This document shows positions 38,897 to 59,021 of a stretch of 64,000 bases of DNA, piece after piece; within the stretch, counting starts at the first letter, position 1, and the number at the start of each line of letters is the position of its first letter. The translations under genes were made by a program, and so were the position numbers. The notes beneath the pieces were generated by a model that did no database searches, was not told the DNA's origin, and was given only the letters and a program-made list of their open reading frames with translations. The DNA is from a virus. Where the stretch lies: IMG/VR virus record IMGVR_UViG_3300002494_000025, positions 71,375-135,374 of that record; one strand, written 5' to 3'.

Positions 38897-39035
38897 TTAT
38901 AAATTATGTAAAATATATAAAAACGTTTAATAATATGTATATTTTATGTATCATAATAAAACTTAATAGTGTAAAATTGTTTTTCATTTCGTTAAAAATT
39001 ACAACAATACACTTATAAAGCGGGGTGATATATCA

Positions 39036-39449
39036 ATGATAATAAATGAAGAAGTTGATAAGGCAATAGAACTAACGTAGGAGATAAATGCAAGAGTTAT
39101 CGATAGTTATGAAACGAAGATAAGTGAATTACAAAACGCGTTAATGTTGTAGGTGGAAATTATTGATACATTGTTACAGAAAGTTGAACCAACAGAAACT
39201 GAGTTCATCGAGTACCTGAAAGGTAAGATATCTCAAATTAAATCGGTTCTTGAACCACAACCACTTATCTCTAAACCTACACAAAATGAAAATATTGTTG
39301 GTACATCAGTATTTTCAGATGATGTACAAACTTAGAAATAGGAAGAAGATAATGGAGATAAAGAGGAAGATGAAGAAGTTGATCACTTTGAAAATGTTAA
39401 AAATGAATTAGAAGAGAAGCTGTTAAAGTGGTTACTAGATAGTAAATAA
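39036..39449 (+). CDS. Prohead core/scaffold protein candidate (137 aa, 4 TAG)
   Basis: Acidic coiled-coil ORF immediately upstream of the capsid gene; RBS GGGGTG; TAA stop. Confidence 0.6.
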
Positions 39450-39491
39450 TCTACAAAATCAACTAATTTAGTTAAGAGGGGGTATATAGCA

Positions 39492-40931
39492 ATGACAAAA
39501 GATACAGTTGGTTTAATACTTGAAAGAAATTGGAATACTTACAAAAACGTTATTGTAGAGAGTGCATTCAAAAATTATTATGGTAAACAGACAAATAACG
39601 TCCAGAAAGAAGTATTAAAGATATTACTTGAAAATACAAAAAGGAACATGATTACTGAAGGTCTTACAACATCTACACAGGCATCTATTGCAGTTCCTGT
39701 TATTCTTGGTCTTACAAAGAAATTCTTCCCAAAACTTATTGCGAACGAGATCGTTTCTGTTCAACCACTTACAAGACCAACTGGTATTGTGAAGTTCAAG
39801 AAAATTAGATTCCAGGATGGTCGTGAGCTTGCAAGTGATAAAACAGATGGTCTTCTCTCAACTGATACATCATTTGGTACTGAACAGTATCAATCACTTA
39901 CACAACGTGTTTCTGTATCAATTGCAGGTGGTGCATCAACAACTGTTACATTGAATGGTGTACAACCACCATTTAAGGGTGTACAGATTGGTTCATTTAT
40001 GGTTAAATTACCAAATGGTATAACAATACCTGAAGTAAATGGTACCATAGTTGTAGATGAGTTTAAGATTACAATTAATTACTACACTGGTGTAATTACT
40101 GTTCAAAATACGGGTAATAGTACCACCCCAGTTAGTAAAACGTTTGATGTTATTTACAACACCGTTGCATTTGAAACGAATTCCCCAGACACAATCGGTA
40201 GAGTATTCTTTGACTTTGAAAACATTCCAGTTAATGCAATAACAAGAAAACTCAAGGCCAGCTGGACATATGAATTCTTAGAAGATATTCAGGCCGAACT
40301 TGGTGATCTTATCAATTTTGAGCAGGAAGCATTTGAAGATGTTTCTGCAATAATTGCTGCTGAAATCAACAGAGAAATAATTATGGATATAATCAGTGGT
40401 GTTCTTTCGTATGGTAGTAATATTGTTGAATGGCACTATAATCCAGCAACATTGAGTGGTAACAACTGGTTAACAGCAGAAGCATACTTCAGAACGCTTA
40501 TACACAAAATTAATGAGGTTGCTGGTAAGATCACAAGAGCAACAAAGAGATTTGAACCAAACTTTATAGTCGTTTCACCATACACAAAACAGTTCATAAT
40601 TAATGGTCTTACACAATATGAATGGAGACCATCCGAGAATGTTACTGATGCACTTGACTATGCAAAGATTGGATTTGCACTCAGTGGAACAATTTCTGGT
40701 AAATGGAATATGTACGTAACACCAAGTATTCCTGATGGTTATATTATTGTTGGTTATAAGGGTTCTGGTGTTGCAGACAGTGGTTATGTCTATGCACCGT
40801 ACATTCCATTGAAGGCAGTACCAATCACATACGAATCAATTCCTGGTCTCTACTTCTACACAAGGTATGGTAAAACTATGTACTCCCCATGGTACTACGG
40901 TCTTGTAAAGATTCCTGAACTTCTTTCATAA
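39492..40931 (+). CDS. Major capsid protein (T4 gp23-like)
   Basis: PKLIANEIVSVQPL..PTG, RKLKASWT, EINREI, VGYKG...YAPYIPL; no internal TAG. Confidence 0.95.
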   Translation: MTKDTVGLILERNWNTYKNVIVESAFKNYYGKQTNNVQKEVLKILLENTKRNMITEGLTTSTQASIAVPVILGLTKKFFPKLIANEIVSVQPLTRPTGIVKFKKIRFQDGRELASDKTDGLLSTDTSFGTEQYQSLTQRVSVSIAGGASTTVTLNGVQPPFKGVQIGSFMVKLPNGITIPEVNGTIVVDEFKITINYYTGVITVQNTGNSTTPVSKTFDVIYNTVAFETNSPDTIGRVFFDFENIPVNAITRKLKASWTYEFLEDIQAELGDLINFEQEAFEDVSAIIAAEINREIIMDIISGVLSYGSNIVEWHYNPATLSGNNWLTAEAYFRTLIHKINEVAGKITRATKRFEPNFIVVSPYTKQFIINGLTQYEWRPSENVTDALDYAKIGFALSGTISGKWNMYVTPSIPDGYIIVGYKGSGVADSGYVYAPYIPLKAVPITYESIPGLYFYTRYGKTMYSPWYYGLVKIPELLS

Positions 40932-40949
40932 TAATTGACACGATTAAAT

Positions 40950-40990
40950 AAAAAAGTCCCCCAGGGTCGGTATCCTGGGGGTTTCTTTTT
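40950..40990 (+). terminator. Intrinsic terminator after the capsid gene
   Basis: CCCCCAGG...CCTGGGGG plus T tract. Confidence 0.8.
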
Positions 40991-41083
40991 ATCAAAATTA
41001 AGGATATCGATGAACTTTAAATAAAACTTAACAATGTGTGAAAGAAAGACTAATCATTACTTTGTTATGGGGGTGTCATTCTA

Positions 41084-44000
41084 ATGAATTTTGATGTAAA
41101 TAAGTATCTGAAAATACTATTTGACAATGAAACAACAATAATCGATGAATTAAATGAATCCGGTGATAAAACAGATATTATTACTGAGGATGACGATACA
41201 AGTGATGATACATTAACTAATGATTGGATGAAATATGTTGAGAGTATTGAACTGACAACTAAACCATTTGATGAATTCAAAGATATAGTATAGTGGATAT
41301 TGGTTAAAACAGCAAATAATAATGTTACTGCAATACCAATTGATAAAAGTGAAAAAACATTCGAGTCTGTTTTACAAAAACATTCTAAAGTTTTAAGATC
41401 ATCAAGTAGTAGTGTAACAGGTGCTATAAACACTTTAAAAACACAATTAAATGTCATAGGTTTCATATTACCAACTTACATCAAGATACATTTTAAGGAT
41501 AAGTTTCTAAAAACTACAAATATAACAAAAATACCATTTGATGAATTTAAAACCTTCTACGTGTTTGTCTTGTACAATATAACCGGTATTTCAGTTAAAC
41601 AAATTAAAGAGTTAATCAAAACTGAGATTGATCCAGATGGTAAAATTTTGAATGATAAAAACAATCAAAGAATGTTACATCAATATCACGAATTTCTACT
41701 CACATACGGTAATAAAAACAAACCTTCAATGTTCAACTTCAGTAAATTTGAAATTCCATTTAACTAGGAACTAACACAAGAAGCTGAAAAAACTAGTGAC
41801 AAAGATGTTGTAACTACAAGTAAACCCAAAAAATTCACACTTTATCAAAAAACAAAACATTCAATTGTTCCGGATGAAGAGTTTGTAGGTAGTGGTTAGT
41901 TATTTGATGATACAAACAAAATTCTATAGTACATATTCGAAATGAATTCTAATAACATGTCCCAGGATAGTGTTCAACTCAAAATGTTTAAATAGATATT
42001 TAACAGACTGTACAAAATTCAGATTGTCGATACAAAGGACCAGGAATAGATTGTTTAGTTACTATTCACAATTTTACTTTACATAAGTCGAAAAGATATT
42101 GGGATTGAAAATAATACAATTGAACTATACAACGTGTTGTCAAATGAAAGAATGGTTATAGATAATATTGGGGGGTTAACTAAATTATCAGATTTACTCA
42201 AAGGATTACAGTTCGATTTACTTGTTCAAGATATAGAAGTATATACAAAAACTAAGAAAGTTGAAAATACAATACTTCTTAGTTTATTATATGAAAATTT
42301 CAAAGATAGTAGTTTCTACAACATATTACGAAAAGTTTCAAAGTACGTGGACGGTAATGCACCAATTTATGTGATCCAAAATGAAGAGATTATGAAATAG
42401 CTTTAGAACGGTAAAATGGATTAGGATACATTCTTGAGTAAATACCCAGACGAACAACAAAAGTATTTTATCAGATTGGTACTGGCAAAAAGTGGTGAAA
42501 CTAAATTTACACCCGATGTGGTTGTTATAGTACCATTTAAACAAAATGTAATTAAAACTCAATCAGTAACACCAATTGGTAACTATAATTACTATGTTGT
42601 TACTGATGAAATTCAAGACCATGAACATGGAACATTAAAAAATCAATACATTAATAGTTACAACATTAAGTATTCAAACAACACGTCAATAAAACCAGTT
42701 GAACTATAGTTCGTTTCTGATAACAACACATTATTGTCTAATTCATAGTATGTTGTTAAATTTGAACACGATCTTAATAATGTTGATGATGTTGATGATA
42801 TGATTGTGGATACAGTTGATAATCCATTATTAATTACCGACCTTGATAGAGAAGAAATCGGATTTGGTGGTATATTTGGGTTCTCAATTAAAACAGTTGG
42901 TGATGGCGGTGCAAGACTTGGTAGATTGTTACATACCGTTGTTGATGAAGATATCCCAACTTTTAATGAAAATCGAAATTATATGACTGACATACTACAG
43001 ACAATTATCAAAGATAACAGGGATATAACTCATAACATACTCCACGAAAATGATAAGAGTATTTTGAAATATATATCATCCAAATAGCTTGATATTATTA
43101 CTCAGAAATATGGTATTACCGGTGTGTATAACATTTTTAAAACACTGAGTGAAAGTCTATTTAGAAATAAACAGTATACAAATATATTCTTGGAGACCAT
43201 GTTACGATAGGTATTAGATGATGATGTACTCTCAAAAATGATTATTGAGAGTTACAACAACAGTGATATCGATGAGGATATATTCAGTCATTTATTCATT
43301 CAAATACTATCAGAACTGTTATTCGAAAAATGGGTTAAACATGTTATTACAGAAAGTGAAGAGAATATAGTACATGGTGAGATATCTAAAGAGGAGAAAC
43401 AAACAATTATTAGTAGGGTAAACTCATTGTGGAATACATACATATATAAGAGTGTTACAGAGAAAAATTCAAAATATAAATTTTCCTTCTCCGACTTATA
43501 TAACCCAGATACCATTAAACAACTATAGTCTATATTTGTTGAACAATTCCAACAGTTAAATAATCAAAATGAAACCGAAATTGTTAAATCTATAAACTCT
43601 ATATATGTAGACCTATACAAAGAGTTGGTCTTACCAGTTTATAACAATACAGGACAGTTCATAAATATGTTTACAGAATTTGTAAAGAAATATGTAGATA
43701 ATATTAATATCGATGATGTTGACGAGTTAAACAGACAAATAAAACTGGATATTATTAGTTAGATTAAGTCCATGATTAACAAACATGGTTCAGATTCACA
43801 AGTCATAAGGTTACCACAAATTACAGATGTTATCTTCAATGATTGTAACCTAACAGAAAATACAGAACTGTACAGTATTATCAAAGGGTTAGTTGGTAAA
43901 AACAGTTTGAACATCAAAGAGTTTTCCACATTTATTTACAATAAAATTCTAAAGAAAATTACATATTTGTTGTTCATAATTAAATTGTACACATGGTACG

Positions 44001-45349
44001 TCACAAATGTATTGTTACTTCTAACAGTCCAAGATTATAATGTGTTTATCAAATCGATATTCATTTAGGGCGCGAAACAATTTAACACAATAAAAGTATT
44101 TAATAATGACAATATGAAAACCAGTTTGGATTACAAATAGTTAATACAACATTAGAAATCATCAAAAGACAAAATATCGTTACATTTTGTCAAACACATA
44201 AGAGTTAACATACCACTCTTTACGTTAAGTATTCAAAGTTCAGAAAAACTGATAAGTTCAATAGAAAAGAACGTTAAACAATTGTAGAAAAAAATAAATA
44301 TTACAAATCCAGAAACAATTCGACAACTTCTGATATCACTTACAAAAAATATGATTAGTGTGGAAATTAAGAAAGTTGGTAGGGGTACTGAAACAGTTGA
44401 ACACAATACTGACAAAGTTGAGAATACAATGAACAAACTATTAAACAAACTTTCTAATAGCCAAGACATATTAAAACTGAGCCAATTGACATCCACCGAT
44501 ATAATTACTATTTTAAACACAGATGAAAATATTTTTAATAAATATCTGTTATAGAACTTATATACCAATACTGATGTCATTCAAAAACTTACAAACTCTA
44601 TAGAAAATGCATTGTATGATAAATTGTCAAATGTAGACCCCAATAAAGTATATATTGTCAAAACATATATGAATGTGAAATATCGTGGACAAGAGGATAA
44701 TTCATTACCACTTCAGATCAAAGATACAAATATTACAATCTTGCAATAGGAAAATGCAAAGTCGATAATAAATGACTTAATATGGGAGTATTATGAACAA
44801 CTAATTAATGGTAATGCATGTCAATTACTATTGTGGTAGAATTTCAATCATATATTTGATATTACATCAGTATCAAGTAAAAGTAATCAAACTGATGATA
44901 GAATTACGGTGTCGGTGGTTTATAATCAAGCAATACAATTACTGATACAGGCAGAGTCTGATATGTATATAGATTTGAAGTTTGTTGTATATCCACTTGA
45001 TACAACAAATAGTAGTTTAGAAAATACTGATACAATTCAGAAACCATTAGTTATTACATCAAAAAACATACCACAATTGAAAAGTATAAAAATTTCTAAG
45101 ACACTCATAAATTTTGGAATTGCATTAACATTAAAATCTGAGATAAGATCGGGTACTTTCGGTTAGGATGAAAATATCAGGGTAGTTGTGAGTAAAATAT
45201 TTACTGATATGGATTCCGGATTTGAACTTGTAATGCCGTTGTACACATCAAAAGTAAAAGTTGATAATTCAGTAACAAAAAATCTTGATAGTAGTATACA
45301 TGATATACTTGATACAGTTGTAGACTATATAACAAGTTATAATATATAA
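41084..45349 (+). CDS. Large hypothetical protein, possibly a head-packaged protein (1421 aa, TAG=Ala)
   Basis: Nine listed ORFs share one frame; TAA at 45347; acidic N-terminus. Confidence 0.75.
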
Positions 45350-45367
45350 CAGTTGATATATAATAAC

Positions 45368-45410
45368 AAAAAGACCACCCCGAGATATTTCAGGGTGGTC
45401 TACTTTTTTT
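45368..45410. terminator. Bidirectional intrinsic terminator
   Basis: AGACCACCC...GGGTGGTCT hairpin with A and T tracts between convergent genes. Confidence 0.8.
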
Positions 45411-45425
45411 ATTAACTAAATATAA

Positions 45426-45818
45426 CTATTCATCTTTTTTGTTCTTTCTTCTTTTACGACTATTACGTTTTTCTACTTTTGTTTCTATTTCTACATCATC
45501 ATTTTCTTTTTTCTTTCTTTGTCTTTGTTGTTTCGTTCTTTTGGTTTTAATATTGATTTTAAACCCTTTCAAGTTCTTTTTCAATTCGTCATATAATATA
45601 TTATATACATCGTCTGTTGTATTTAGTGATGGTTCAGTATCTATGTCAACTGCAACTGTTTTTTTATACACGTTTGTATAAATAGTCAGAATCCGGTCGT
45701 CGACTTCAGTTTTTGTACATATGTACATCCCATGTTTAAACTTGGAACCCAAAACAATATTTTCAATTATATCCTTGATTTTCCACATAATACCATCCTC
45801 CTTTCTTTTAATATTCAC
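45426..45818 (-). CDS. Hypothetical basic protein
   Basis: Intact ORF with K/R-rich C-terminus; likely start at MWKIK after GGAGG. Confidence 0.65.
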   Translation of the reverse strand: MNIKRKEDGIMWKIKDIIENIVLGSKFKHGMYICTKTEVDDRILTIYTNVYKKTVAVDIDTEPSLNTTDDVYNILYDELKKNLKGFKINIKTKRTKQQRQRKKKENDDVEIETKVEKRNSRKRRKNKKDE

Positions 45819-46498
45819 TAAATTAGTGTTGATAATAGTTGTAAGTTTTTCTCAAGTCTATATTTTTTACTGGCTGATAACATATTTTTATACTCAATTG
45901 TATGTATATTATTCAACCCGTATTTTAACAATATATATAAATACTCTTTAATTATCTTCTTGTTTACAATGAGTTTGCTGTCTTCATAATTATTTGTTTT
46001 CTTCTTATATTCTTCTAATCTTGTCATTAATATATCAACAATTTTCAATATTTGGAAATCGTCAAGTTCCTCATGGTTCCTACTGGGTCCAGTTTCTTCA
46101 TCATCTTCATTATCACTATTGTTGTTGGTATAATAATAAACAAAGTCAAGGTATTCTATCATATCATCATCAAATGAGATGAGTGGGATTTCATAATACT
46201 TGTATTTTATGTACGAAAATACGAACATTGTGATTAATTTATCCGATATAAATGGGATACGGATTGAAACATAGTTTGATTTTGTTGATTTTGTATTTTT
46301 AGAAACTTTTTCAAGTGCCCATGTTAGTATTTCGCTTACTATGTCTTCGATATCTTCTTTAGGTAGGTTAATATTAATATTATACTTTTTTATTTTTCTA
46401 TAAATTTTACCATACAATATTTGTCTAATTTTTTCAACTCCCTCAATTTCTCTTGTTGAGAGATTACTTTCCATAATTTCCATAATAACACCTCCCAT
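45818..46498 (-). CDS. Sigma-factor-like protein (region 2-like), TAG-free
   Basis: KIYRKIKKY...EDIEDIVSEILTWALEK...YVSIRI resembles sigma region 2; likely start MEIMES after GGAGGTG. Confidence 0.45.
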   Translation of the reverse strand: MGGVIMEIMESNLSTREIEGVEKIRQILYGKIYRKIKKYNININLPKEDIEDIVSEILTWALEKVSKNTKSTKSNYVSIRIPFISDKLITMFVFSYIKYKYYEIPLISFDDDMIEYLDFVYYYTNNNSDNEDDEETGPSRNHEELDDFQILKIVDILMTRLEEYKKKTNNYEDSKLIVNKKIIKEYLYILLKYGLNNIHTIEYKNMLSASKKYRLEKNLQLLSTLI

Positions 46499-46659
46499 GT
46501 TTTAATATTTTTTATTTTCTTCTGATGTACCACGGTAATGTCGTAGATGTACCACGGTATCTTTGTAAATACTTCTAAATTTTTCCATCATAAATACTAT
46601 ACTATACTACAATAGTATGGTATATACTATACTACTATCTATCTCACCTGATTTCTTCA

Positions 46660-46837
46660 GGTGAAACTTACACCCTCGTTCTTTTTGATTTTCCTGGTAT
46701 AAACTAACCAGGTTATATCAATTTGTAGAGAATTTTGTTGGGGATTTGTTGGGGATTTGTTAGGATTGTTGGGGATTTGTTGGTGAAACTTACACCCTCG
46801 TTCTTTTTGATTTTCCTGGTATAAACTAACCAGGTTA
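46660..46837. repeat. 56-bp direct repeat (46660-46715, 46782-46837) flanking TTGTTGGGGAT tandem units
   Basis: GGTGAAACTTACACCCTCGTTCTTTTTGATTTTCCTGGTATAAACTAACCAGGTTA occurs twice; 4-5 copies of TTGTTGGGGAT lie between them. Confidence 0.9.
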
Positions 46838-47108
46838 CGTCAATTTATTATAACACTTTTTGTTTTCTTTGTCAAGACAAGACAATAAGCAATAACAATA
46901 AGTATAAAATTGTAATAAAATAAAAATACAAATTTCAACATTATAGAATGTGTACAATGACAATGTAAAACAATTATGTAACTTAATTGAGATAGTACTA
47001 TCTTACTGTGGAAAGAAAAACAATGGAACAACATATTTGTCAAGATCAAAATTAAATAAAGATTGCAAATCTCAACATATTATTATATGAAACGTGTGAT
47101 ATAGATGT

Positions 47109-47184
47109 GGGGCCGTAGCTCAGTTGGGAGAGCACTACCCTTGCAAGGTAGAGGCCGTGGGTTCAAATCCCATCGGCTCCACCA
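47109..47184 (+). tRNA. tRNA-Ala(UGC)
   Basis: 76-nt cloverleaf GGGGCCG...CGGCTCC ACCA, anticodon loop CTTGCAA, G3:U70. Confidence 0.95.
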
Positions 47185-47356
47185 GATTGAACAACATATT
47201 GATACAATGGATATGAACCTTGAGAAATAAGGGCTTTTTTGTTTTAAAAAAGAGGTTCTACAAGAGGAAAAAACAATGGAACAATATATTTGTCAAGATC
47301 AAAATTGAAATAAAAATTGCAAATCTCAACATATTAATTATGGAGTGTGTGATATC

Positions 47357-47432
47357 GGGGGTGTAGCTCAACTGGGAGAGCAGCGGTCTCTAAAACCGTC
47401 GGTTGCGGGTTCGAACCCCGTCACCTCCACCA
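47357..47432 (+). tRNA. Amber-decoding tRNA (anticodon CUA) with alanine identity, tRNA-Ala(CUA)
   Basis: GGGGGTG...CACCTCC-A-CCA gives G3:U70 and A73; anticodon arm GCGGT-CTCTAAA-ACCGT with CTA at 47390-47392; normal D and T arms. Confidence 0.93.
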
Positions 47433-47438
47433 GATTTT

Positions 47439-47798
47439 GGGGACGAATGGTTTCGACGGAGGTAAGTCCTCTTCGGAAGCGGGTCGAGGTTACCTACCGT
47501 CCTCGTAAAAAAACGGTAGGAAAAAAATAAGTGCCAACGAATACATTCCTCTTGCTGCCTAATTAACAGGTAGCCATCCACTACAAGGTTGGACCAGTAC
47601 CTTGTAGTTGGGTGTGACTCAACTGGTCCGGTAACTCAGACGCGTCTCACGTCTGATGTTACTTTACTCAATGAGACTGGTCAATCAGTAGTTTGTCTGT
47701 GGACGACTGATTGATGAGATTTAAATCACAGACTGTACCCGGAGATGCCGAGGTGGACTTACTTTCGGACGTGGGTTCGATTCCCACCGTCTCCACCA
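47439..47798 (+). ncRNA. ssrA: tmRNA (SsrA), tag (A)ANEYIPLAA
   Basis: 5' GGGGACG, 3' GGGTTCGATTCCCACCGTCTCCACCA, 360 nt; tag frame GCC AAC GAA TAC ATT CCT CTT GCT GCC TAA at 47533-47562. Confidence 0.93.
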
Positions 47799-47891
47799 GA
47801 AAGACAGAAATTATATATGAATTATATAGAAATTACATAACTTAAATATGTAATTTTTTAAATGAATTTCAAATGAAACGGGGGTGTTATA

Positions 47892-48383
47892 ATGGTAAAA
47901 ACAATAAGAGGAAACATTATTTTTAAAATGGATGTTAATTTTAGTGAATTGCATGATGTGGCTGAATTTTTAGAATTTGAATTCACTCGAGGATTCTAGA
48001 AACATGTTGAGATATCAGTTGTATCACCAAAGATAGATAGTGTTCTGATGAAGAAATTGGCAAAAACATTAGCACCGTTGAAATCAAAAATAAACATAAA
48101 GTGGAATGGAGATACGTTGTTGATCACATTTGATGTGAAGCCAATGTACGGATCGTATCCCAAAACATCGATTGATTATCTATATCCATTATTTGATGTA
48201 ATTGAAGAATTGAAAAATATTGATCCTGACATTCGTTTTTCTGCTACTGTATCAACATCAAAAAATATGGACATAATAAGTCCTGATATTATAATTGGCT
48301 ATGCAGAAGATTTACAAAAATATGCAAAACGTTGGATAGAAAATTGGGAAGTGGTATATCATAAACCATACGGAGCTATCTAA
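47892..48383 (+). CDS. Hypothetical protein, paralog 1 (163 aa, one TAG)
   Basis: RBS plus ATG at 47892 in frame with ORF 48048-48383 across F*KHVEI. Confidence 0.75.
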
Positions 48384-48449
48384 TGATTCCAAAACAGTAT
48401 TACGTTTGAACATAAAAAAGGTGGGATTCATTCCCACCTTTATATTTTA

Positions 48450-48535
48450 GATGAGATTTAAATCACAGACTGTACCTGGAAATGTCGAAGAGGACTTACT
48501 TTCGGACGTGGGTTCAATTCTCACTGTCTCCACCA
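48450..48535 (+). repeat. Degenerate duplicate of the tmRNA 3' end
   Basis: GATGAGATTTAAATCACAGACTGTACC...CTCCACCA copies 47713-47798 with substitutions. Confidence 0.85.
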
Positions 48536-48615
48536 GAAAGACAAAAATTATATATGAATTATACGGAAGTTATATAACTTAAATATGTAATTTAGATGAA
48601 AACGGAGGTGTTATA

Positions 48616-49086
48616 ATGGCAAACACAGTAAGAGGAAAATCTAATTTTAAAGTTGATGTCATTTTTAATGAACTACGTGATGTGATTAATTTTCTATACT
48701 TCAGACCTGAATTTTAGAAACATGTCGAAATAACAATTGTATCACCAAAGATAGATAGTGTTCTGATGAAGAAATTGGCAAAAACATTGGCACCGTTGAA
48801 ATCAAAAATAAACATAAAGTGGGATGGAGATACGTTGTTGATCACATTTGATGTGAAAGAAACGTACGGATCGTATCTCAAAACATCGTTTGATTATCTA
48901 TATCCATTATTTGATGCAATTGAAGAATTGAAAAATATTGATCCTGACATTCGTATTTTTGCTACTGCATCAGCATCAAAAAATTCGGATATAGTATATC
49001 CTGAAGACATAATTTCGTATGCAGAAGACTTACGAAGCTATGCAAAACGTTGGTCGAAAAATTGGAAAATAGTATATCATATATAA
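48616..49086 (+). CDS. Hypothetical protein, paralog 2 (156 aa, one TAG)
   Basis: Highly similar to 47892-48383; TAG at the aligned position. Confidence 0.75.
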
Positions 49087-49146
49087 ACCATACTCATACT
49101 AAACTATCTAATGAAATGTTAATTATAATAAGGGGGGGTATCTATT

Positions 49147-49614
49147 ATGGAATATACAAGTAAAGGCAAAATGATAATGTATTTTGATGATGATTCCAAA
49201 ACAATATTACATGGTGAACTTGTATTCAATGGATGGGGTACACTTGAACAATTTATTACAGATGATAATATTATATTTACAGTAGTTGAATCAACAGAAT
49301 TGTTCGAAAATATCCATTATAGTAAGATAGTATTTGATGAAGATTCTGTAACTAAAATACGAAGAAAAAATCCTACACTGTACAAAAAGATTGAGGAATA
49401 TGTGGATAAAGAGTTTTATCTTGCACTCATCGATAAAGCATTGAAATATGTGAGAAAAGAACACCCAGAATTTGAAACAGAAGAATTTGAAGAGGCGGCT
49501 GATGAAGTATTGGAAGAGTTAAAGGAAGAATACAAAGAGTTTGATGTGGTTGATAAAATAAATTATGTCCCAATGGATGTCAAAATAATTGAACTTGAGG
49601 ATGAAAATAAATAA
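49147..49614 (+). CDS. Hypothetical acidic protein
   Basis: Intact 155-aa ORF with strong RBS, followed by a terminator at about 49645-49675. Confidence 0.75.
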   Translation: MEYTSKGKMIMYFDDDSKTILHGELVFNGWGTLEQFITDDNIIFTVVESTELFENIHYSKIVFDEDSVTKIRRKNPTLYKKIEEYVDKEFYLALIDKALKYVRKEHPEFETEEFEEAADEVLEELKEEYKEFDVVDKINYVPMDVKIIELEDENK

Positions 49615-49843
49615 AACACACATATGAATATTTTGAACATAACAAAAGGTGGGGTTTATTCCCACCTTTATATTTTATATGTACAATATGTTAAAAAAAC
49701 TAAAAAACTTAAAATCAAACTTGATATTGGGGTGAATTTCAATTGAATGGTTGGGTTGGATATGATATTTCCAAATGGTTCGAAGAATGTGGTGGTATGT
49801 GATATTATAAAACATTTTATATGTATTGATAGGGTGAGAATGT

Positions 49844-50032
49844 ATGGAATATATAAATTTAGTATATCATGATGAGAATGTTTATCTCTACAATAATAAT
49901 TTTTTAACTATAGACATGAATGATTGGATAGGAAGGATTAATCTAATAGTCACATCACCACCATACAATATCAAAAAATCCCCTTGTTATTGTTGTGTAT
50001 ATCTGATAGATCTTATCTGTTATATACATTAA
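49844..50032 (+). pseudogene. Truncated N4/N6 DNA methyltransferase fragment
   Basis: INLIVTSPPYNI (motif IV) followed by unrelated sequence and TAA after 62 codons. Confidence 0.65.
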
Positions 50033-50282
50033 CGGAACTTTATATGTGTATTCAGAACTTATGTTTATTAATACAACCAAATCTATTTTTCCATTTTTAT
50101 TACTTGATAAACGTACGTCACTTTTGAGTGTCAATTTTTGTAAAACTTAATAATGGGAAGACATATATGATATGGATGTGGAAGTGTTTGTATGAGTATG
50201 AAGATTGTACATGGTAGTGAGGTAAGAAAAACTTTAAAAATATAAAATCATTAATAGAGAATGGATAAGGAGGTGTGTATAT

Positions 50283-50549
50283 ATGAAACCATTGGGTGAG
50301 AGACTGTTGATAAAACCAATTAATGAAGAGAAAAAAACATCGGGTGGACTAATATTACCTTCAAATGATTCTGAGAACTTTATTAAAGGTATTATAGTTG
50401 GTGTGGGTGTTATACCGGAAGGATACGAATCGGACAATTATACGTTGGGAGATGTTGTAGTATTTAATAAATATAGTGGTGTTGAAATTGTATTGGATGG
50501 GGAAACATATTACGTAGTAAATATAAGAGATGTGTTATTGAGGGTGTAA
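50283..50549 (+). CDS. groES: Co-chaperonin GroES (Cpn10)
   Basis: MKPLGERLLIK...TSGGLILP...GDVVVFNKYSGVEIVLDGETY. Confidence 0.93.
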   Translation: MKPLGERLLIKPINEEKKTSGGLILPSNDSENFIKGIIVGVGVIPEGYESDNYTLGDVVVFNKYSGVEIVLDGETYYVVNIRDVLLRV

Positions 50550-50662
50550 ATTATGTAAATTAACTTGTTAAAATAATATAACTAATAACATAACAAATAT
50601 TCAAATATTGGTGGGTGACAATAACACCCACCTTTCTTTTTAAAAAATTGTTACACTTTGTT

Positions 50663-51223
50663 TTATCCAATTATAACTTTGTTTGAAAATTTGATCACGT
50701 TTTTGTCAGATATTAATTCAATTGGTTTGTTGTTGTAATACGGATAATCAATTGACATTTTTCCTATTAACCAATATGTCTTTGTACCAACTGAACCAGT
50801 GACTTTGTATACGTTATATCCAAAAAATATTAATACTGGATTTAGATAGTACAACTCTGCTATTGTGAACGTAATGGTTAACAGTAATAACGTTATGATA
50901 CCTGATGTTACATCGAATATTGTTGATATTAGTATTAACATAACATTTACTATTACTGAAAATATCATAGTTTTGTTACTCCATAAATGAACAGTTGTTC
51001 CTTTTGGTAGAGAGATTTTGTGGTACCACTTATGACATTGAGACAATTTCTTTAATACAATACTTAGTGACAATAATAAAACGACAGATGTTAAAACAAA
51101 CCAAATCCCGATGACATGTTGAAATAATAACAACTGTGTCAATCCAAATGCTAAAAAATAAACTGTAAACATATTTAAACTGAATAAAATTTTTATAAAC
51201 ACATTTACAAGTGTCATTAACAT
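50663..51223 (-). CDS. Multi-TM membrane protein, KwaA-like
   Basis: About 4 TM segments followed by YYLNPVLIFFGYNVYKV; GGAGGTG RBS before ATG at 51223; TAG-free. Confidence 0.5.
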   Translation of the reverse strand: MLMTLVNVFIKILFSLNMFTVYFLAFGLTQLLLFQHVIGIWFVLTSVVLLLSLSIVLKKLSQCHKWYHKISLPKGTTVHLWSNKTMIFSVIVNVMLILISTIFDVTSGIITLLLLTITFTIAELYYLNPVLIFFGYNVYKVTGSVGTKTYWLIGKMSIDYPYYNNKPIELISDKNVIKFSNKVIIG

Positions 51224-51519
51224 AACCCCACCTCCTTCATACTTCCTATGTAAACACATATTATTTTTCGTGTCGTACAATAATAATATGTTTGATTTTG
51301 CAATATTGGAAGTGTAAATTTTATATAGTCTATATGGTTATGAACAATGTAAACATCACATGTTTCGACGAGTGGCCGGCCCACCGACAGACACAAATGT
51401 TGAGGTGTAAATAAAAATTAATATAATTTTTATTTATAGTTGGCAGGATAAAAACTATAAAAAACTTTTATATTCAATCATGTTACTATTGTTAATAATA
51501 TGCCATTATTCAAAGAAAA

Positions 51520-51850
51520 ATTAACTGTCTCCTAGATAATAATATAATATATATTATATATATAACTGGTCTAGTAACTGACAATTGTCATATCACAGTA
51601 TATGTACTAGTACTAGATATTATATATATATAACTAGTCTAGTAACTGATAAACTGTTATATTACAATGTATATACTTAGCACTAGTATTAATAACTTGG
51701 TAAATTGTTATATTACAGATATATATAACTAGTACTAGTATCAGTAACTGATAAATTGCCATGTTACATGTTACAGATACATAATTAGTACTATTAACTA
51801 TTATAGAATAGATAAAATCTATTATATATATCAGTTACAGTTATAATCAT
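51520..51850. repeat. Degenerate AT-rich tandem repeats (candidate replication origin)
   Basis: About 4 units with core TAACTGAYAAAYTGYYATRTYACA, CTAGTACTAG palindromes and (AT)n runs in a 0.7-kb gene-free gap. Confidence 0.6.
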
Positions 51851-52046
51851 GATCATGATATGTTTGTTTTTGACGTAGTTAATTAATTATATTAATTAAT
51901 TGTCAATTGTGTTGTTTATATATATTACCAGTTAATATAAATAACATATTATCATTTTAGTTGTTTGTTAAAATTGTAAAGTTGAACATATTATTTATGT
52001 GGTGTGTGAAAAAACTTAAATCAATGGTAGAAAGGAGTGGGTTTTT

Positions 52047-52853
52047 ATGATAATTAGGTATGGGATATTTGAAATTATGGTGTCTGAACTAGTAAGTTTA
52101 CTTTCCAAAACTTTATTGGATGAGATTTTAAATAAGATTTCTGATACTAAAACAGTCACATATGAATTAATTCTTGATATCTTGAATGACGTAAACATAG
52201 ATAACTATGATGAAATTATAAAAAAAGACATTGAACGTTTAATTAACATTCATCTTGTCATTGATAATAAAGATAGTAGTTATATAGCAATAGATTTTCC
52301 ACTCATAAAAATGTTGTATGTGACAGAACCAACCACTTGTGTTCTTGACAAAATAAAAATTGACTTTCCAAATATAAACAATCTCATAAATAATTTCAGG
52401 TATATAATTCAACCATTACATTCAATTATTAACGACAAATCTCATACTAATGAAGTTAACAAAAAAATTTTAAATCATCCAAATACACAAGAATACTTAC
52501 TAATTGAGGAACATATGATGAATATCCTATCTAGGTATCTTTTTAAATATATTAATTATCTGGAGTATCAAATATTGTTGTTAGTGTTGTTTAAATTATC
52601 AAAGATAATGATTAATAGTAGTAATAGTAAGATGTTGGGTATAGTTACTGTTGATGAAGATATTACATGTGACGAAAACAATTCACATATGTGTAAATGG
52701 GTCTATGGAATATTTGATGTTTCCAAACCAGATCTTGAAAAGGTTATGAAATTACACATTAATTTTTTGTTAAAAAAATACAACAACCACAATACAAAGA
52801 TACAGTACGAATATATATCCGTTCTTCCAACTATAACGAAGATGTCAACATGA
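52047..52853 (+). CDS. Hypothetical protein (TAG-free, early-type promoter upstream)
   Basis: Intact 268-aa ORF, RBS AAGGAG, TGA stop. Confidence 0.8.
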   Translation: MIIRYGIFEIMVSELVSLLSKTLLDEILNKISDTKTVTYELILDILNDVNIDNYDEIIKKDIERLINIHLVIDNKDSSYIAIDFPLIKMLYVTEPTTCVLDKIKIDFPNINNLINNFRYIIQPLHSIINDKSHTNEVNKKILNHPNTQEYLLIEEHMMNILSRYLFKYINYLEYQILLLVLFKLSKIMINSSNSKMLGIVTVDEDITCDENNSHMCKWVYGIFDVSKPDLEKVMKLHINFLLKKYNNHNTKIQYEYISVLPTITKMST

Positions 52854-52956
52854 AACTAAAAATTGTAAATTCTAACATATTATTATTGGGTGGTTGGGTA
52901 AACGGTCTGTCGGTACGGTATCAATAAAATAAATCCACAACATGAGAGGAGGTTGA

Positions 52957-53313
52957 TTGGTTATGATAATTATATCGAACAGTTTTTCACCGAATATGTT
53001 ACCATCAATGGTAGCGGCTAAAGTTAATATTGTAGAGGTAACAAGGGAAGAATTTGTGGAACAGGTCAAAAAACTCACTAGTGAGTTGTCCTATCAATCA
53101 ATCGTCGGTCACAAAGCAACAGCAGATGTACTTTCTCAGATACTTGGTTTTCGAGTTGTTGAAAACAGAGTGAATTACACAGTACAAGACGGAGATATTG
53201 TTGTGGTTTTCACCCCGGGTATAAGATTGGAAGAGGGGAAGGTTTTGTCTGAGGATGAACTTAAAAAATTACCCGGGAGGTACTTCATTGTAACAGTTCG
53301 AATTCAGGAATGA
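52957..53313 (+). CDS. acrIII-1: AcrIII-1-like viral ring nuclease (DUF1874/STIV B116 family)
   Basis: ISNSFSPNML, SIVGHKATADVLS (catalytic GH), ENRVNY and RLEEGKVLSEDEL follow the family pattern NxFSxNML..GH..NR..RLxEGxxL. Confidence 0.85.
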   Translation: MVMIIISNSFSPNMLPSMVAAKVNIVEVTREEFVEQVKKLTSELSYQSIVGHKATADVLSQILGFRVVENRVNYTVQDGDIVVVFTPGIRLEEGKVLSEDELKKLPGRYFIVTVRIQE

Positions 53314-53587
53314 GGAGGTATTTGTTGTATGAACAGACTTAGTAAATCGAAGAATAGTGAGAAATTAAATGTTAGCAAACAAATTGATCAAAAAGATTAA
53401 AACAATGTTAAATAGTACACAAAAAATGATAATACTCAAAATGAATAATAGAAAATTTTTGTTTTTGTTATAACGTCCCTGGTCTACGTACGATACATAT
53501 GTGTATGTATGAAAATCGTACGTAGATTTTTATTTTATTCTAATCCAAACTTAAAAATTGTCAGGTCTTCATTATAGAGGTGTTGAT

Positions 53588-54289
53588 ATGGTCGATAAAA
53601 AAACAAATCTTATAGTTGTTAATCCAACATTAAACAATCTAATTAATGTTGATAATATGAATGTGTTTGTATATGATGTCAATGGTATATTATCATTACT
53701 TGACAATAGTAACATTTTTGATTTCACAACAATGTACGTTAATGATTATTATATTTAGAGAAAAAATTTACTAATAGATATACTAATAGATAAAGATAAA
53801 CATAAAATGGATTATGTTAATGTTTTGTTTATGGAATGGTTGAATATATATGTATATGATAAAAAACATAATAAGACTGTTATTACATTGGATGAGTTTG
53901 TCAACAATAATGATATACATTATTTACGAAGTATGTTTGGACGATTTGTGACCACCCTAAAAAATATATTCAGAAAATCAGTCTATCTGGTGAGATTACC
54001 TGAAAATCTTTTGGATTTACTTGATTTACTTGAACAACTAAATATGGCCAATAATAATTCTATAGTTTTAGTTAACATAGATAGATATTTTCAACAAATG
54101 GCATTTGATATTGTTGATATTGTAAGGAAATTGATAGAACTGTTTAACAACAATGGATATGATGTACATACAATATACAATATCATTGATGATACGATAA
54201 AACTAACTAATCTTGATTTATCAACTATGAAAAACAGTTGTATAATAACAAGGGATGGACGAATTTATTATTATTATTATTTTAAATGA
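53588..54289 (+). CDS. Hypothetical protein (233 aa, one TAG)
   Basis: GAGGTG RBS plus ATG at 53588; joins ORF 53807-54289 through TAG. Confidence 0.65.
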
Positions 54290-54295
54290 AAATGA

Positions 54296-54669
54296 AGGAT
54301 AGGGTTTGATGTATATGCGTCCGACTTAAACCCCATAGTAACATTTGGAGGAGTTCTTAGAGAAGATATACAACTTAACCGATGTGTAAATAACAGAGTG
54401 GGGAATAGAACACAACGAACAAGGAGATAGAGCAGATACGTATATATACTGTAACGAAGTTGTTTGTTCTGAATGTCGATACAAAAACAGTCCTCCTTTT
54501 ACACGAAAATCAAGATGAAAAAGCTTTTAACATAGAGGTAAAGTCAAACGCTTCCAAAGACGTGATAGAACAAGTTGAAAAATTAGTGACTATAAAAGAC
54601 GGTGAAATGTGGTGTCCTCGTAAAGAGTGTCTGGTTATTAGATTTTTCGAACAAAAAACCACAAGTTAA
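54296..54669 (+). pseudogene. Frameshifted fragment of a DUF1156-type adenine DNA methylase
   Basis: Different frames read RIGFDVYASDLNPIV, EWGIEHNEQGDRADTYIYCNEVVCSEC and AFNIEVKSNAS..KDGEMWCP; no intact ORF. Confidence 0.5.
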
Positions 54670-54714
54670 GTAAAGTAACTTATTTTCGGACTTGTTGAAA
54701 GATTCTCCAAAACA

Positions 54715-55839
54715 ATGATGAAAGGAGTGGGACATATGGAAAATATTACAACAAAACTACAACAACTGACATTTTATGTTAAACAAACATCGGATAAGAA
54801 TGAAATGATATTCAGATGTCCGTTACATGAAGATAGACACGGACATCTGTATGTTTCTTCAAATTTAGAATATATCTGTTTCAAATGTGGAGTAAAGGGG
54901 AATAATTTCTTAAAATTTTTGTTAAAACACAATAGTTATCTGGATAATAATGATAAACAAATACTTATTGATATATTATCAAATTTAATGTTATCAGAAA
55001 CCCATGAACATGAAGATACGGTTCGTAATGATGAAAAAGAACAAGAAATTGACGAACAGAAAGTTCGTCTGTTCCATGAATTGAAAATATTGTTAAAAAA
55101 TTATACCAAACGAAATAAACAAATAATTTACAAATATTTATCTGATACAAGAAATATAACAGATAGGGATTATATAGATGATTTAATTGAACAAGGGTAC
55201 ATTCTATTTTATAGTAAAAAGTTATACCGGACTGTAAATAATTATACGAAATCAATTTTTGGTAAGAAGATGATCTATGTAAACCAGGCAATTGGATTGA
55301 CAGTACCAAATAGTGGAATGTTACAGTTTCGTGTAATAGATAAAGACACCAATATACGGTATTATATTCTAAAATCGAAAGAAATTAGTCCAAACACATC
55401 TTTCTATATTGGAAACACACGAAACCCACAAACATGTATAATCGTAGAGGGGATTTTTGATGCAATCAAACTTGATTATTTACTTAGAGAACATATGGAT
55501 AATTACATCGTCGTCGCATTAACGGGAAAAACTAACGTCAACACAATAATCGAACTACAAAACCTTTTACGTTACAATGTATCTGTATATATAATAGCAT
55601 TGGATATGGATGTTGATATGTACGACATAAAAAGGGTGTATAACAAAATTAACGAGAATAACCAGAACATGACACCACATGTGTATGTTTTAACCAAGAA
55701 AAACAACGATGTAACAGATAAAGATTTTGATAATATACACAACTTTGATGAGTTTAAAAAGAAGTTTGTGCTTGTAAATTACGTAAAATACATAACCAAT
55801 ATATGGAAACTATCAAATCTATTTGATGTTGAGGAATAA
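54715..55839 (+). CDS. DNA primase (Zn finger plus TOPRIM)
   Basis: CPLHED..CFKC zinc finger, IVEGIFDA and ALDMD TOPRIM motifs; TAG-free; likely start 54736. Confidence 0.9.
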   Translation: MMKGVGHMENITTKLQQLTFYVKQTSDKNEMIFRCPLHEDRHGHLYVSSNLEYICFKCGVKGNNFLKFLLKHNSYLDNNDKQILIDILSNLMLSETHEHEDTVRNDEKEQEIDEQKVRLFHELKILLKNYTKRNKQIIYKYLSDTRNITDRDYIDDLIEQGYILFYSKKLYRTVNNYTKSIFGKKMIYVNQAIGLTVPNSGMLQFRVIDKDTNIRYYILKSKEISPNTSFYIGNTRNPQTCIIVEGIFDAIKLDYLLREHMDNYIVVALTGKTNVNTIIELQNLLRYNVSVYIIALDMDVDMYDIKRVYNKINENNQNMTPHVYVLTKKNNDVTDKDFDNIHNFDEFKKKFVLVNYVKYITNIWKLSNLFDVEE

Positions 55840-56536
55840 TAAAATAAAAGGAAAGGAAGGTGAGTATATGATAATCGTGTTTGAGGGATTGGATTTTTCA
55901 GGTAAAACAACTCAGATTAAACTATTCAAACAATATCTCGAATCAAAAGGTTCAAATGTTGTCACACTAAAAGAACCAGATGACAATATATTTCCAGAGT
56001 TAAAATTTGTAATTAGTAAAAAGAAACTACAACCACAAACTGAACTATTCTTATTCCTGGCAATGCATGTTGAGTTAACAAGAAAAATATATGAATTGTT
56101 CCATGAAAGTGATATAAACAATATACCAGACGTGATAATTATTGATAGATTTGTATATTCTACATTAACATATCAGGGTGTGGGACGTGGGATTGGATGT
56201 AAACTCATTAAAATGTTAACAGATCACTTTGTTAAAATTAACGTAGGTGATAAAACATTTAAAATAGAACCAGATTTAGTGTTTTATATCGACATCCCAC
56301 CAGAAGAAGTATTGAAAAGAAGAAATGAACTCAAGAAAGAAAAATCAAATTTCGATATGGAGTCTATTGAGTTTTTCACAAAAGTAAGAGACACCTATTT
56401 GAAACTGGTCAAACAACATAATTTCGTAGTATTAGATGGGTTACAAGACATAGAAACAATCCACCAACAAATTGTTGAACATTACAAACGTATGTCTAAC
56501 ATATTATATCCAAATAGTGGTATTGTTGAGTGTTGA
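55823..56536 (+). CDS. tmk: Thymidylate kinase
   Basis: FEGLDFSGKTTQ P-loop, IIDRF, YQG and PDLVFYID motifs; likely start 55868. Confidence 0.93.
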   Translation: MMLRNNKIKGKEGEYMIIVFEGLDFSGKTTQIKLFKQYLESKGSNVVTLKEPDDNIFPELKFVISKKKLQPQTELFLFLAMHVELTRKIYELFHESDINNIPDVIIIDRFVYSTLTYQGVGRGIGCKLIKMLTDHFVKINVGDKTFKIEPDLVFYIDIPPEEVLKRRNELKKEKSNFDMESIEFFTKVRDTYLKLVKQHNFVVLDGLQDIETIHQQIVEHYKRMSNILYPNSGIVEC

Positions 56537-56548
56537 TAGTGTCAGACT

Positions 56549-56588
56549 AAAAAACGAGGGTGGGTATTTAGTACCCACCTCTTTGTTT
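56549..56588. terminator. Bidirectional intrinsic terminator
   Basis: GGTGGGTA...TACCCACC hairpin between convergent tmk and endolysin genes. Confidence 0.75.
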
Positions 56589-56594
56589 GTTTAA

Positions 56595-57317: not shown

Positions 57318-57336
57318 ATTATATACCCCCAAAGTT

Positions 57337-57741
57337 TTATTGTTTTACAAATAGTACCCATACTTTGTTATTTCTACTATCGACGTCAATTTCAGTTGGT
57401 TTATGTGTGTTGATAAATACTAAAGTTTGTTGTGGATTTTTACTATAAATTATAAACACCGTATTGTTTATTTTATATACAAGTTTTTCTGAATCAGTAC
57501 TGATAAGTTGTTTTTTATCGTACTGTTGGAAAAACACCTATATATTCTCTAGAGGTGTATCATTTAATGGTGTAACGATTACAACATATGAATCCACATT
57601 CTGTTGGACGTCGTCCCATACTAACGTCGTTTGTGGTTGATAATTTATATACGATAGTGTCATACCAAAAACAACTAAACCAACCAACTACAAATATACG
57701 TATGTTAACCAATTGGAAAAATCAAGATGGAAGTTAAACAT
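57337..57741 (-). CDS. Membrane-anchored protein upstream of the endolysin (lysis accessory candidate)
   Basis: N-terminal WLTYVYL*LVGLVVFGMTLSYI helix; two TAG; TAA stop. Confidence 0.6.
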
Positions 57742-57761
57742 GGATTATCACCCCCGTAATA

Positions 57762-58957: not shown

Positions 58958-59021
58958 TTTATCCCACCCACCATTTTCTTGACACAACTTTTTAATTTGG
59001 TGATTGTTGGAGGTGTGAGAC

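Follow-up and report, generated by a model that had tools for sequence, protein, structure and literature searches.

An alanine-type amber suppressor tRNA beside an apparently host-derived tRNA-Ala and tmRNA in a Fervidobacterium-like prophage predicted to read TAG as alanine

The 64,000-nucleotide stretch of DNA analysed here (the window) is the right 64 kb of a 135,374-bp IMG/VR record, IMGVR_UViG_3300002494_000025, and contains a compact cluster of three RNA genes: tRNA-Ala(UGC), a tRNA with the anticodon CUA and a one-piece transfer-messenger RNA (tmRNA). Judged by its genes and flanks, the surrounding element is a ~105-kb tailed prophage of 29% G+C whose host would be a Fervidobacterium-like member of the Thermotogota. 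Alignments of the large terminase (TerL) and of PhoH, together with the interchange of TAG and the GCN alanine codons among relatives, indicate that TAG encodes alanine in this prophage, not glutamine, and we are confident that the tRNA(CUA), as a suppressor, is the agent of this change. For the cluster as a whole, the reading towards which we lean is that of a translation cassette of a Fervidobacterium prophage with TAG as alanine, built on an ancestral suppressor by the capture of two host RNA genes.

ARAGORN found three RNA genes only, in the window and in the whole record alike, all on the plus strand. The first, tRNA-Ala(UGC) (47109-47184, +; Rfam 73.4 bits), and the second, the amber suppressor tRNA(CUA) (47357-47432, +; Rfam 67.0 bits), both form a canonical cloverleaf with the identity elements of alanyl-tRNA synthetase (AlaRS), and both have G3:U70, A73 and an encoded CCA. 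ARAGORN labelled the suppressor 'Pyl', a label due solely to its anticodon. A spacer of 6 nt (47433-47438, +) separates the CCA of the suppressor from the 5' end of the tmRNA (47439-47798, +), which matches the one-piece tmRNA model RF00023 at 204.3 bits over model positions 1-374 (gathering score 47), a full-length covariance match with the pairings kept. Its tRNA-like domain is complete, with GGGGACG/CGUCUCC-A-CCA and the T-arm GGGUUCGAUUCCC, and its mRNA-like frame (47533-47562, +; ARAGORN coding part 95-124 of the gene) opens with an alanine resume codon and runs GCC...GCC TAA, giving the tag ANEYIPLAA. The acceptor stems are GGGGCCG/CGGCUCC in tRNA-Ala(UGC), GGGGGUG/CACCUCC in tRNA(CUA) and GGGGACG/CGUCUCC in the tmRNA, such that all three RNAs have G1-C72, G2-C71, G3-U70, G4-C69, A73 and an encoded CCA in common. 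An earlier note on this DNA, made from the letters alone, had described the three as the only RNA genes, all with G3:U70 and A73, with the tmRNA 6 nt past the CCA of the amber tRNA and a tag ending in TAA; ARAGORN, Rfam and the sequence agree with it on each of these points. A permuted tmRNA (RF04321) reported by Rfam at 47370-47562 (63.8 bits) was rejected, as it consists of the 3' half of tRNA(CUA) and the 5' part of the one-piece tmRNA.

The G3:U70 wobble pair and A73 are the identity elements of AlaRS, which charges its tRNAs independently of the anticodon. The tRNA(CUA) is thus predicted to be of alanine identity and to be charged by the AlaRS of the host. No gene for SmpB, a release factor or AlaRS was found in the record, and host copies of SmpB and AlaRS are assumed.

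With TAG read as a sense codon, the cover by open reading frames (ORFs) of 100 aa or more is 93%, up from 62%, and the longest ORF is 2505 aa, up from 822. Little was gained with TGA as sense, and with TAA as sense all frames were open, as is expected for A+T-rich DNA. In-frame TAG codons number 22 in TerL and 41 in the 2504-aa ORF. The marks of a stop-codon-recoded phage are all present, namely in-frame TAG in conserved genes, ORFs that are restored and a matching tRNA(CUA). Set against 111 distant homologs of TerL (29-33% identity), alanine is the commonest residue at nine of the 22 TAG columns and fills 900 of the 2442 cells in these columns (37%, for a background of 6.6%), whereas glutamine, the meaning of TAG in NCBI table 15, fills 33 of 2442; the TerL columns do not bear out a glutamine reading. 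At 11 of the TAG columns a single residue occurs in at least 80% of the homologs, and in six of these it is alanine, for example in DE-AA-F after Walker B. PhoH gives a similar picture, for when it is aligned with PDB entry 3b85 its six TAG positions face alanine (four), glycine (one) and histidine (one). Two features of the TerL alignment weigh against alanine: in the distant homologs alanine does not dominate 13 of the 22 TAG columns, and in five of these 13 another residue (M, I, G, V or K) is strongly conserved.

Closer relatives of TerL speak to the same question. The nine closest in the protein database (P0001 at 87% identity, P0002 at 65% and P0003-P0009 at 37-56%) have 'Q' at the TAG columns, and at the 10 TerL columns that are written GCN in the prophage they show 'Q' in 46 of 90 cells. 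We infer that this 'Q' is TAG translated by table 15; on that reading, TAG and GCN would replace each other as synonymous codons do. In addition, a sister contig (L158) has TAA or TAG at seven of the 10 GCN columns. None of the NCBI tables in Biopython gives TAG or TAA as alanine, and a search of the literature found neither a stop-to-alanine code in phages, although the tRNA tables of Borges et al. may list suppressors other than those for glutamine, nor anything on recoded Fervidobacterium phages.

In the prophage, 58 ORFs contain TAG, among them those for the terminase, the tape measure and other large virion-type proteins. Within these ORFs TAG occurs 386 times and GCN 251 times, hence about 60% of their alanines would be written TAG. 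A further 32 ORFs are free of TAG, including the capsid gene and a block at 44.9-69.7 kb of the record, and the stop codons of the prophage are TAA or TGA. The major capsid gene itself (39492-40931) has zero TAG and its neighbouring genes 4-41. GCA makes up 271 of the 380 GCN codons of the prophage (71%). Alanine appears scarce in the phage proteins, with GCN and TAG together accounting for 1.4-2.9% of prophage codons, compared with 7.3% in the host flank. The GlnRS-type domain PF03950 was found in none of five Fervidobacterium-type genomes, the controls behaving as expected, and one may speculate that a host without this domain, together with an AlaRS that is blind to the anticodon, explains the choice of alanine over glutamine.

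The assignment to a prophage and to its host draws on base composition, flanks and gene content. The record is classed as a provirus, with a CheckV completeness of 76%. Its G+C is 41-44% in the first 25 kb, falls to 27-31% at 25-130 kb and rises again at the end. From about position 59076 of the window, the right flank, which encodes NrdG and NrdD, matches Fervidobacterium and other Thermotogota at 61-93% protein and 68-80% DNA identity; the left flank matches one of the five Fervidobacterium-type genomes at 64-75% identity. The low-G+C part encodes TerL and a gp23-type major capsid protein as well as PhoH, radical-SAM proteins, a cytidylyltransferase-like protein, a primase-like protein and thymidylate kinase. 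The prophage spans 26.7-130.1 kb of the record and holds its 29% G+C despite a host genus that lives at high temperature. Searches for relatives by other routes yielded little: the capsid protein had only gp23-type matches of below 30% identity among GenBank phages in tblastn and no relative in viral contigs or in genome contigs, and the TerL relative P0001, as a query in viral contigs, returned no confirmed relative.

The three RNA genes seem to differ in origin. An ssrA gene of 361-362 nt with the tag ANEYVPLAA is present in four of the five Fervidobacterium-type genomes, and the phage tmRNA, of 360 nt, is 73-82% identical to these four, the nearest being that of an F. islandicum genome. The comparison with host ssrA that the earlier note had proposed thus identifies a diverged copy, with a tag that differs by a single V to I. 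The G+C of the phage tmRNA has fallen to 49%, from 56-61% in host ssrA, and G>A and C>U account for 26 of its 40 phage-specific substitutions. Structure has been retained nevertheless. The Rfam score of 204 bits lies within the host range of 202-211, and in a five-sequence consensus fold the phage tmRNA keeps 106 of 109 consensus pairs, where the hosts keep 106-109; pairing persists in 19 of its 22 phage-unique pair types, and in seven of these 19 both partners have changed. This fold was made with RNAalifold, which does not model pseudoknots, and PK pairings were not counted separately. The flanks of the phage tmRNA share no sequence with the host ssrA locus. These comparisons point to a captured host gene that has been drifting with phage base composition under selection for structure. 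We rejected the view that the tmRNA is a host ssrA at the prophage border or an att site, as it lies ~11 kb inside, with TAG-containing genes and the phage motif described below on both sides. One of the four Fervidobacterium-type ssrA genes (L196:1364-1725, minus strand) has a tag frame that stops at TAG instead of TAA, and this host tag would be read through in a cell expressing an alanine amber suppressor.

Aligned over its full length, tRNA-Ala(UGC) shows 93-95% identity with the tRNA-Ala(CGC) of the host and 91% with Ala(GGC), with the differences from the host tRNA concentrated in the anticodon arm. It therefore looks like a host tRNA-Ala(CGC)-type gene that was retargeted to phage codon use; whether it acts as codon supply for GCA is, in our estimate, an evenly balanced matter. 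The tRNA(CUA) is only 70-72% identical to any of these alanine tRNAs. Its acceptor stem is identical to those of CUA and UUA tRNAs on contigs whose TerL is 42-43% identical, which argues that the suppressor is the old part of the cluster and that the other two RNAs were added beside it. On these grounds the suppressor appears to be ancestral to a clade of phages, and the tmRNA and tRNA-Ala(UGC) to be lineage-specific host captures. A recent origin of tRNA(CUA) as a copy of the adjoining tRNA-Ala was rejected, the two bodies being only 70% identical.

The sister contigs came from a pattern search of JGI metagenomes for alanine-type amber suppressors (acceptor GGGG, D-arm, CUA loop and U70-C71-C72-A73), which gave 52 loci (L137-L188). 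Suppressors of this type are thus not rare there, and in 28 of the 52 loci ORF cover goes up by 0.25 or more with TAG as sense. Five loci carry a related TerL, each on the minus strand (L158:9064-10545, L169:8244-9725, L172:6553-8034, L183:9049-10530 and L186:1777-3258), and each has one CUA and one to three UUA suppressors, all with G3:U70 and A73. These five contigs have 24% G+C; their TerL frames, 42-43% identical to that of the prophage, hold 46-47 in-frame TAA and 8-9 in-frame TAG. No alanine was seen by eye in the five TerL translations, and a script counted zero alanines among the 494 codons of L158. At the columns of the phage TerL, L158 has TAA and TAG at 12 and one of the 22 TAG positions, and at six and one of the 10 GCN positions, respectively. 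These frames look like those of a sister lineage in which alanine is the meaning of TAA as well as of TAG and only TGA serves as a stop.

The earlier note had called the trio a dedicated code-switch module and proposed a search of related phages for the same trio. A role in a code switch is borne out for the suppressor, given the evidence for TAG as alanine; the trio is not conserved, and two of its RNAs appear to be captures of this lineage. A tmRNA above the Rfam threshold was found in two of the 52 loci, 0.8 kb from the tRNA in L141 and 2.5 kb from it in L146, and in none of the five loci related by TerL, and tRNA-Ala(UGC) adjoins the suppressor in none of the 52. The remaining 50 loci lack a tmRNA within the 1-14 kb available for each, and absence in loci so short is weak evidence; even so, these counts weigh against the reading of the trio as a cassette and lean against a conserved three-part module. 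In IMG/VR, the pattern without its U70-C71-C72-A73 part gave eight loci, only one of which has G3:U70, in the large tRNA array of an Aeromonas T5-like phage, and a 25-nt pattern of the tag region had no match.

Each of the two tRNAs is preceded by a copy of the same leader. Copy 1 (47016-47108, +), before tRNA-Ala(UGC), has the motif TTGCAAATCTCAACATATTA at 47063-47082, and copy 2 (47269-47356, +), before tRNA(CUA), has the same motif at 47317-47336; both were delimited by direct repeats, alignment and motif search. The duplication extends over ~90 nt in three blocks: 47016-47056 and 47269-47309 are 95% identical over 41 nt, 47048-47082 and 47302-47336 91% over 35 nt, and 47086-47102 and 47339-47355 82% over 17 nt. 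Duplicated leaders with a common promoter-like motif, as seen by the earlier note, are therefore confirmed. In the form TTGYAAA-N-AAYATATTA followed by TTAT, the motif has 20 matches in the record at up to two mismatches. Of these, 14 have an ORF on the same strand within 200 nt, two stand before the tRNAs and four have neither ORF nor tRNA. Twelve of the 14 ORFs are free of TAG, compared with 41 of 107 overall. The suppressor and the tmRNA have this upstream signal in common with genes whose translation needs no more than the standard code. Against its being a promoter, the motif lacks sigma-70 spacing and a scan with the consensus promoter performed at chance (seven found, 6.0 expected); for these reasons we call it only promoter-like and make no claim as to timing. 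The sister contigs have textbook TTGACA-17-TATAAT promoters ahead of their suppressors. A joint of 47089 to 51970 in contigs of the DNA run was rejected: it connects two copies of the motif with only 26 nt on one side and was read as an effect of repeat assembly.

A consensus terminator scan found none after either tRNA or the tmRNA. Folding did bring out two candidates: an A/U-rich hairpin with a U-run at 47230-47259 (+), possibly a weak terminator (fold of 47185-47268, -15.2 kcal/mol, z -2.46), and a terminator-like 11-bp A/U hairpin with a U-run after the tmRNA at 47829-47857 (+; centroid fold of 47799-47880, z -2.25). In one hot-spring sample, the DNA run contained 95% and the metatranscriptome library 73% of the sampled words of 45000-50000, and contigs of both libraries cover 30 of 30 bins of 39001-59000, the trio included. 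Such RNA-library contigs carry no information on transcript ends, strand or amount, and some of them may derive from DNA; their cover of the region shows presence in an RNA library, which is weak evidence of expression and does not show processed RNAs. Across the bins, contig depths ranged from 0.7 to 161 in the RNA library and from 220 to 555 in the DNA run. The uneven depths of the former hint that it is not pure DNA carry-over, and are not expression data. The contig with the capsid gene has the top depth in the RNA library (161), such depths being unable to rank genes.

The arrangement of the cluster suggests how it may work. AlaRS of the host would charge tRNA(CUA) by way of G3:U70 and A73, and alanine would be put in at TAG, opening the 58 ORFs that contain it. 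The tRNA-Ala(UGC), with its changed anticodon and behind a copy of the suppressor leader, would read GCA, the dominant GCN codon of the phage. As the tmRNA is only 6 nt away, it would be co-transcribed with the suppressor, most likely being freed from the suppressor transcript by RNase P and 3' trimming, and would most likely add capacity for trans-translation together with the SmpB and proteases of the host. Amber suppression should let ribosomes pass the TAG ends of host and early phage genes and run to the 3' ends of the mRNAs, raising the demand for rescue. Read-through by nonsense suppressor tRNAs is known to create tmRNA substrates (Ueda et al. 2002, as cited in the available text of PMC3985003). 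Targets would be present here, as eight of 86 long ORFs in Fervidobacterium loci (~9%) end in TAG. What the data show is the genes with their identity elements, TAG as alanine, the host origin of two of the RNAs, the conserved structure of the tmRNA and the common promoter-like motif; charging by AlaRS, co-transcription, timing and above all the reason for the retention of the tmRNA are inferred.

Rescue after TAG read-through, as put forward by the earlier note, is mechanistically reasonable; ribosome stalling at runs of TAG, its other proposed cause for the tmRNA, found no support. Its code-switch reading thus seems right for the suppressor and is plausible for the tmRNA. Our own view, that suppression creates a greater need for ribosome rescue and that the tmRNA was retained on this account, is a tentative one. 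More doubtful still is the full form of this idea, that the host rescue RNA was captured as an adaptation to the stop-to-alanine change, with one leader driving tRNA-Ala(CUA) and the tmRNA and the retargeted tRNA-Ala(UGC) serving GCA. Against our reading of the cluster, the tag is nearly identical to that of the host, hence there is no sign of a new function; the drop in G+C could weaken the RNA in hosts that live hot; and tmRNAs are common without signs of recoding. This last point comes from 120 IMG/VR loci selected by a pattern of a tRNA 3' end with a tmRNA 5' end, 105 of which carry a tmRNA, mostly of the permuted kind with the acceptor piece before the coding piece.

The same 105 loci favour the strongest alternative, that the tmRNA, and perhaps tRNA-Ala(UGC), is a general auxiliary gene at a hot spot for tRNA genes, useful for example after phage-induced mRNA decay and with no tie to TAG. 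We regard this as possible but doubtful, to the same degree as the full adaptive scheme. The rarity of tmRNAs in the alanine-suppressor loci (only two of 52) fits it, and cultured Aeromonas phages keep an alanine-type CUA tRNA within an ordinary tRNA array. Huge phages, too, carry tmRNAs and SmpB, according to parts of Al-Shayeb 2020 (PMC7162821). A further IMG/VR locus (L061:886-1303) pairs tRNA-Ala(UGC) with a one-piece tmRNA (129 bits, tag AKTQKAKIP followed by a stop) at a distance of 6 nt, with no CUA tRNA in the 1.3 kb available for that locus. In the prophage, however, the tmRNA stands 6 nt past the suppressor and behind the suppressor's own leader, and the record has no other tRNAs and hence no large array. 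Moreover, L141 and L146 combine an alanine suppressor with a tmRNA within 0.8-2.5 kb, a pairing for which there is no base rate by which to judge enrichment.

The remaining alternatives fare considerably worse. Some temperate phages, Mu and lambda-P22 hybrids among them, rely on the tmRNA of their host for induction or growth. The element being a prophage, its tmRNA might likewise serve the control of lysogeny or sensing, not bulk rescue, and phages are described as using tmRNAs to sense the state of the host in the portion of Al-Shayeb 2020 (PMC7162821) that bears on this. We consider such a role improbable: neither a repressor nor a target came to light, the tmRNA resembles that of the host in tag and structure, and its leader is common to the suppressor, which the virion genes need. 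It is more improbable again that the tmRNA and tRNA-Ala(UGC) are non-functional passengers from the host. Both are host-derived, a broken tmRNA 3' fragment lies nearby and the G+C of the tmRNA has decayed. Yet the compensated pairing of the tmRNA (106 of 109 pairs retained; 19 of 22 phage-unique pair types able to pair, seven of them two-sided), its host-like Rfam score of 204 bits (hosts 202-211) and its intact tag frame all speak for function, as does a tRNA with a duplicated leader in front whose anticodon has moved to the codon preferred by the phage while its body is still 95% identical. Least probable of all is the earlier note's proposal that the extra tRNA-Ala offsets competition for AlaRS from the suppressor and the tmRNA, since, with all three RNAs substrates of AlaRS by their identity elements and no AlaRS gene in the record, a further substrate would add to the load on the enzyme without relief, and the change to UGC together with the predominance of GCA among GCN codons (271 of 380, 71%) points to codon supply.

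Around the cluster, we noted several features that stand apart from these questions. A partial copy of the tmRNA 3' end, comprising T-arm, acceptor 3' strand and CCA (~86 nt; 48450-48535, +; 19.5-bit tmRNA match) and absent from the earlier note, belongs to a tandem duplication recovered by blastn. Copy 1 (47713-48371, +) comprises the tmRNA 3' end and a 163-aa gene (47892-48383), and copy 2 (48450-49093, +) the partial tmRNA and a paralogous gene (48616-49086); they are 83.9% identical over 663 nt, and the two paralogues have one TAG each, at an identical position. Its place in this duplication also speaks against an att site. To the left of the RNA genes lies a repeat-rich intergenic region (46500-46860) that could be a regulatory region or an origin. 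It includes two direct repeats of 65 nt that are 97% identical (46660-46724 and 46782-46846), three repeats of the type TTGTTGGGGAT at 46735-46786 and further 16-22-nt repeats nearby. Next to it, from 46875 to 46847 on the minus strand, is a perfect TTGACA-17-TATAAT with TG, which faces the gene at 45815-46498. Finally, some hot-spring contigs of both runs match the phage over only ~30-36 nt, at 40582-40615, 50468, 53871-53907, 56169 and 58335, and these matches are flanked on both sides by one and the same ~30-nt repeat, resembling CRISPR spacers against the phage.

To our knowledge, the stop-codon recodings known in phages to date are TAG to glutamine and TGA to tryptophan. The recoding of a stop by a phage suppressor tRNA is thus known; what is new, within the literature searched, is that the codon is predicted to mean alanine, that the host is a thermophilic Thermotogota and that a suppressor is physically coupled to an apparently host-derived tmRNA and a retargeted tRNA-Ala. 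The reassigned codon would be alanine by way of an AlaRS that ignores the anticodon, in a host without a GlnRS-type domain, and phage code switching would extend to thermophilic Thermotogota. There is a practical side to this, as pipelines that use table 15 would mistranslate such phages, and close TerL relatives in the protein database already show Q at conserved alanine columns. Suppressor, tmRNA and retargeted tRNA together would form a compact natural system for studying how a virus handles collateral read-through, and a source of suppressor parts that are thermostable and depend on AlaRS. The presence of both TAA and TAG at alanine positions in the sister contigs suggests that former stops can take over from a sense codon family step by step. 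Should the adaptive reading of the tmRNA be true, this would be the first case of a ribosome-rescue gene recruited into a switch of the genetic code: once TAG turns to alanine, the tmRNA would free ribosomes that have gone past the ends of host and early phage messages terminated by TAG, and the products of these ribosomes would be degraded. The clade would be one in which a sister lineage seems to use TAA and TAG alike for alanine and to have lost GCN altogether.

The closest known systems are the phages and prophages of table 15, in which TAG is read as glutamine, among them crAss-like, Lak, Garnet and Topaz phages (10.1101/2021.08.26.457843) and the phAss-1 group (PMC10607447). As far as the available text of these sources describes them, they have in common with the prophage studied here in-frame TAG in structural and late genes, a phage tRNA(CUA) and a block of genes free of TAG, and their prophages likewise have a host with the standard code and a jump in G+C at the border. 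In contrast to them, TAG here aligns with alanine, the tRNA is of predicted alanine identity, the tmRNA follows directly after the suppressor, and the host is a thermophilic Thermotogota without the GlnRS-type domain (none of five genomes). The words 'tmRNA' and 'alanine' are absent from the accessible text of the Borges preprint and of PMC10607447.

With respect to the tmRNA, the gene resembles Fervidobacterium ssrA in length (360 compared with 361-362 nt), in architecture and in its tag (ANEYIPLAA compared with ANEYVPLAA), whereas the phage copy lies behind a phage leader and the suppressor and, in the host, a Lys-Leu-Gly-Leu tRNA cluster precedes the gene. Like the tmRNAs encoded by other phages, both those of IMG/VR contigs and those of huge phages in the portions of PMC7162821 that describe them, it would be the phage's own ribosome-rescue RNA. 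Those of IMG/VR are mostly permuted and in two pieces. The prophage gene differs from these phage tmRNAs in being of one piece and, it seems, of recent origin from the host genus, in having no phage SmpB with it and in being physically coupled to a code-changing tRNA.

The suppressor, too, has counterparts. Engineered allo-tRNAs of alanine identity with a CUA anticodon insert alanine and serine in Escherichia coli, according to the part of PMC5389517 available to us, and G3:U70 with a CUA anticodon is common to these, to a tRNA of Aeromonas Demerecviridae and to the suppressor of this prophage. In the Aeromonas phages (AhSzw-1-like and AhP_Mru1; L134:6910-7065 and L221:20007-20162) the G3:U70 tRNA(CUA) is followed after 6 nt by a tRNA-Ala(UGC). 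This tRNA(CUA) has 85% identity with the suppressor of the prophage over 89-93 nt and is variously annotated as suppressor, TERM, Pyl or OTHER. The ORF cover of AhP_Mru1 (40 kb) rises from 0.60 to 0.87 with TAG as sense and to 0.86 with TAA as sense, a non-specific gain. The Aeromonas phage thus has no specific signal of recoding, whereas the suppressor of the Fervidobacterium-like prophage would serve a genome-wide reassignment of TAG.

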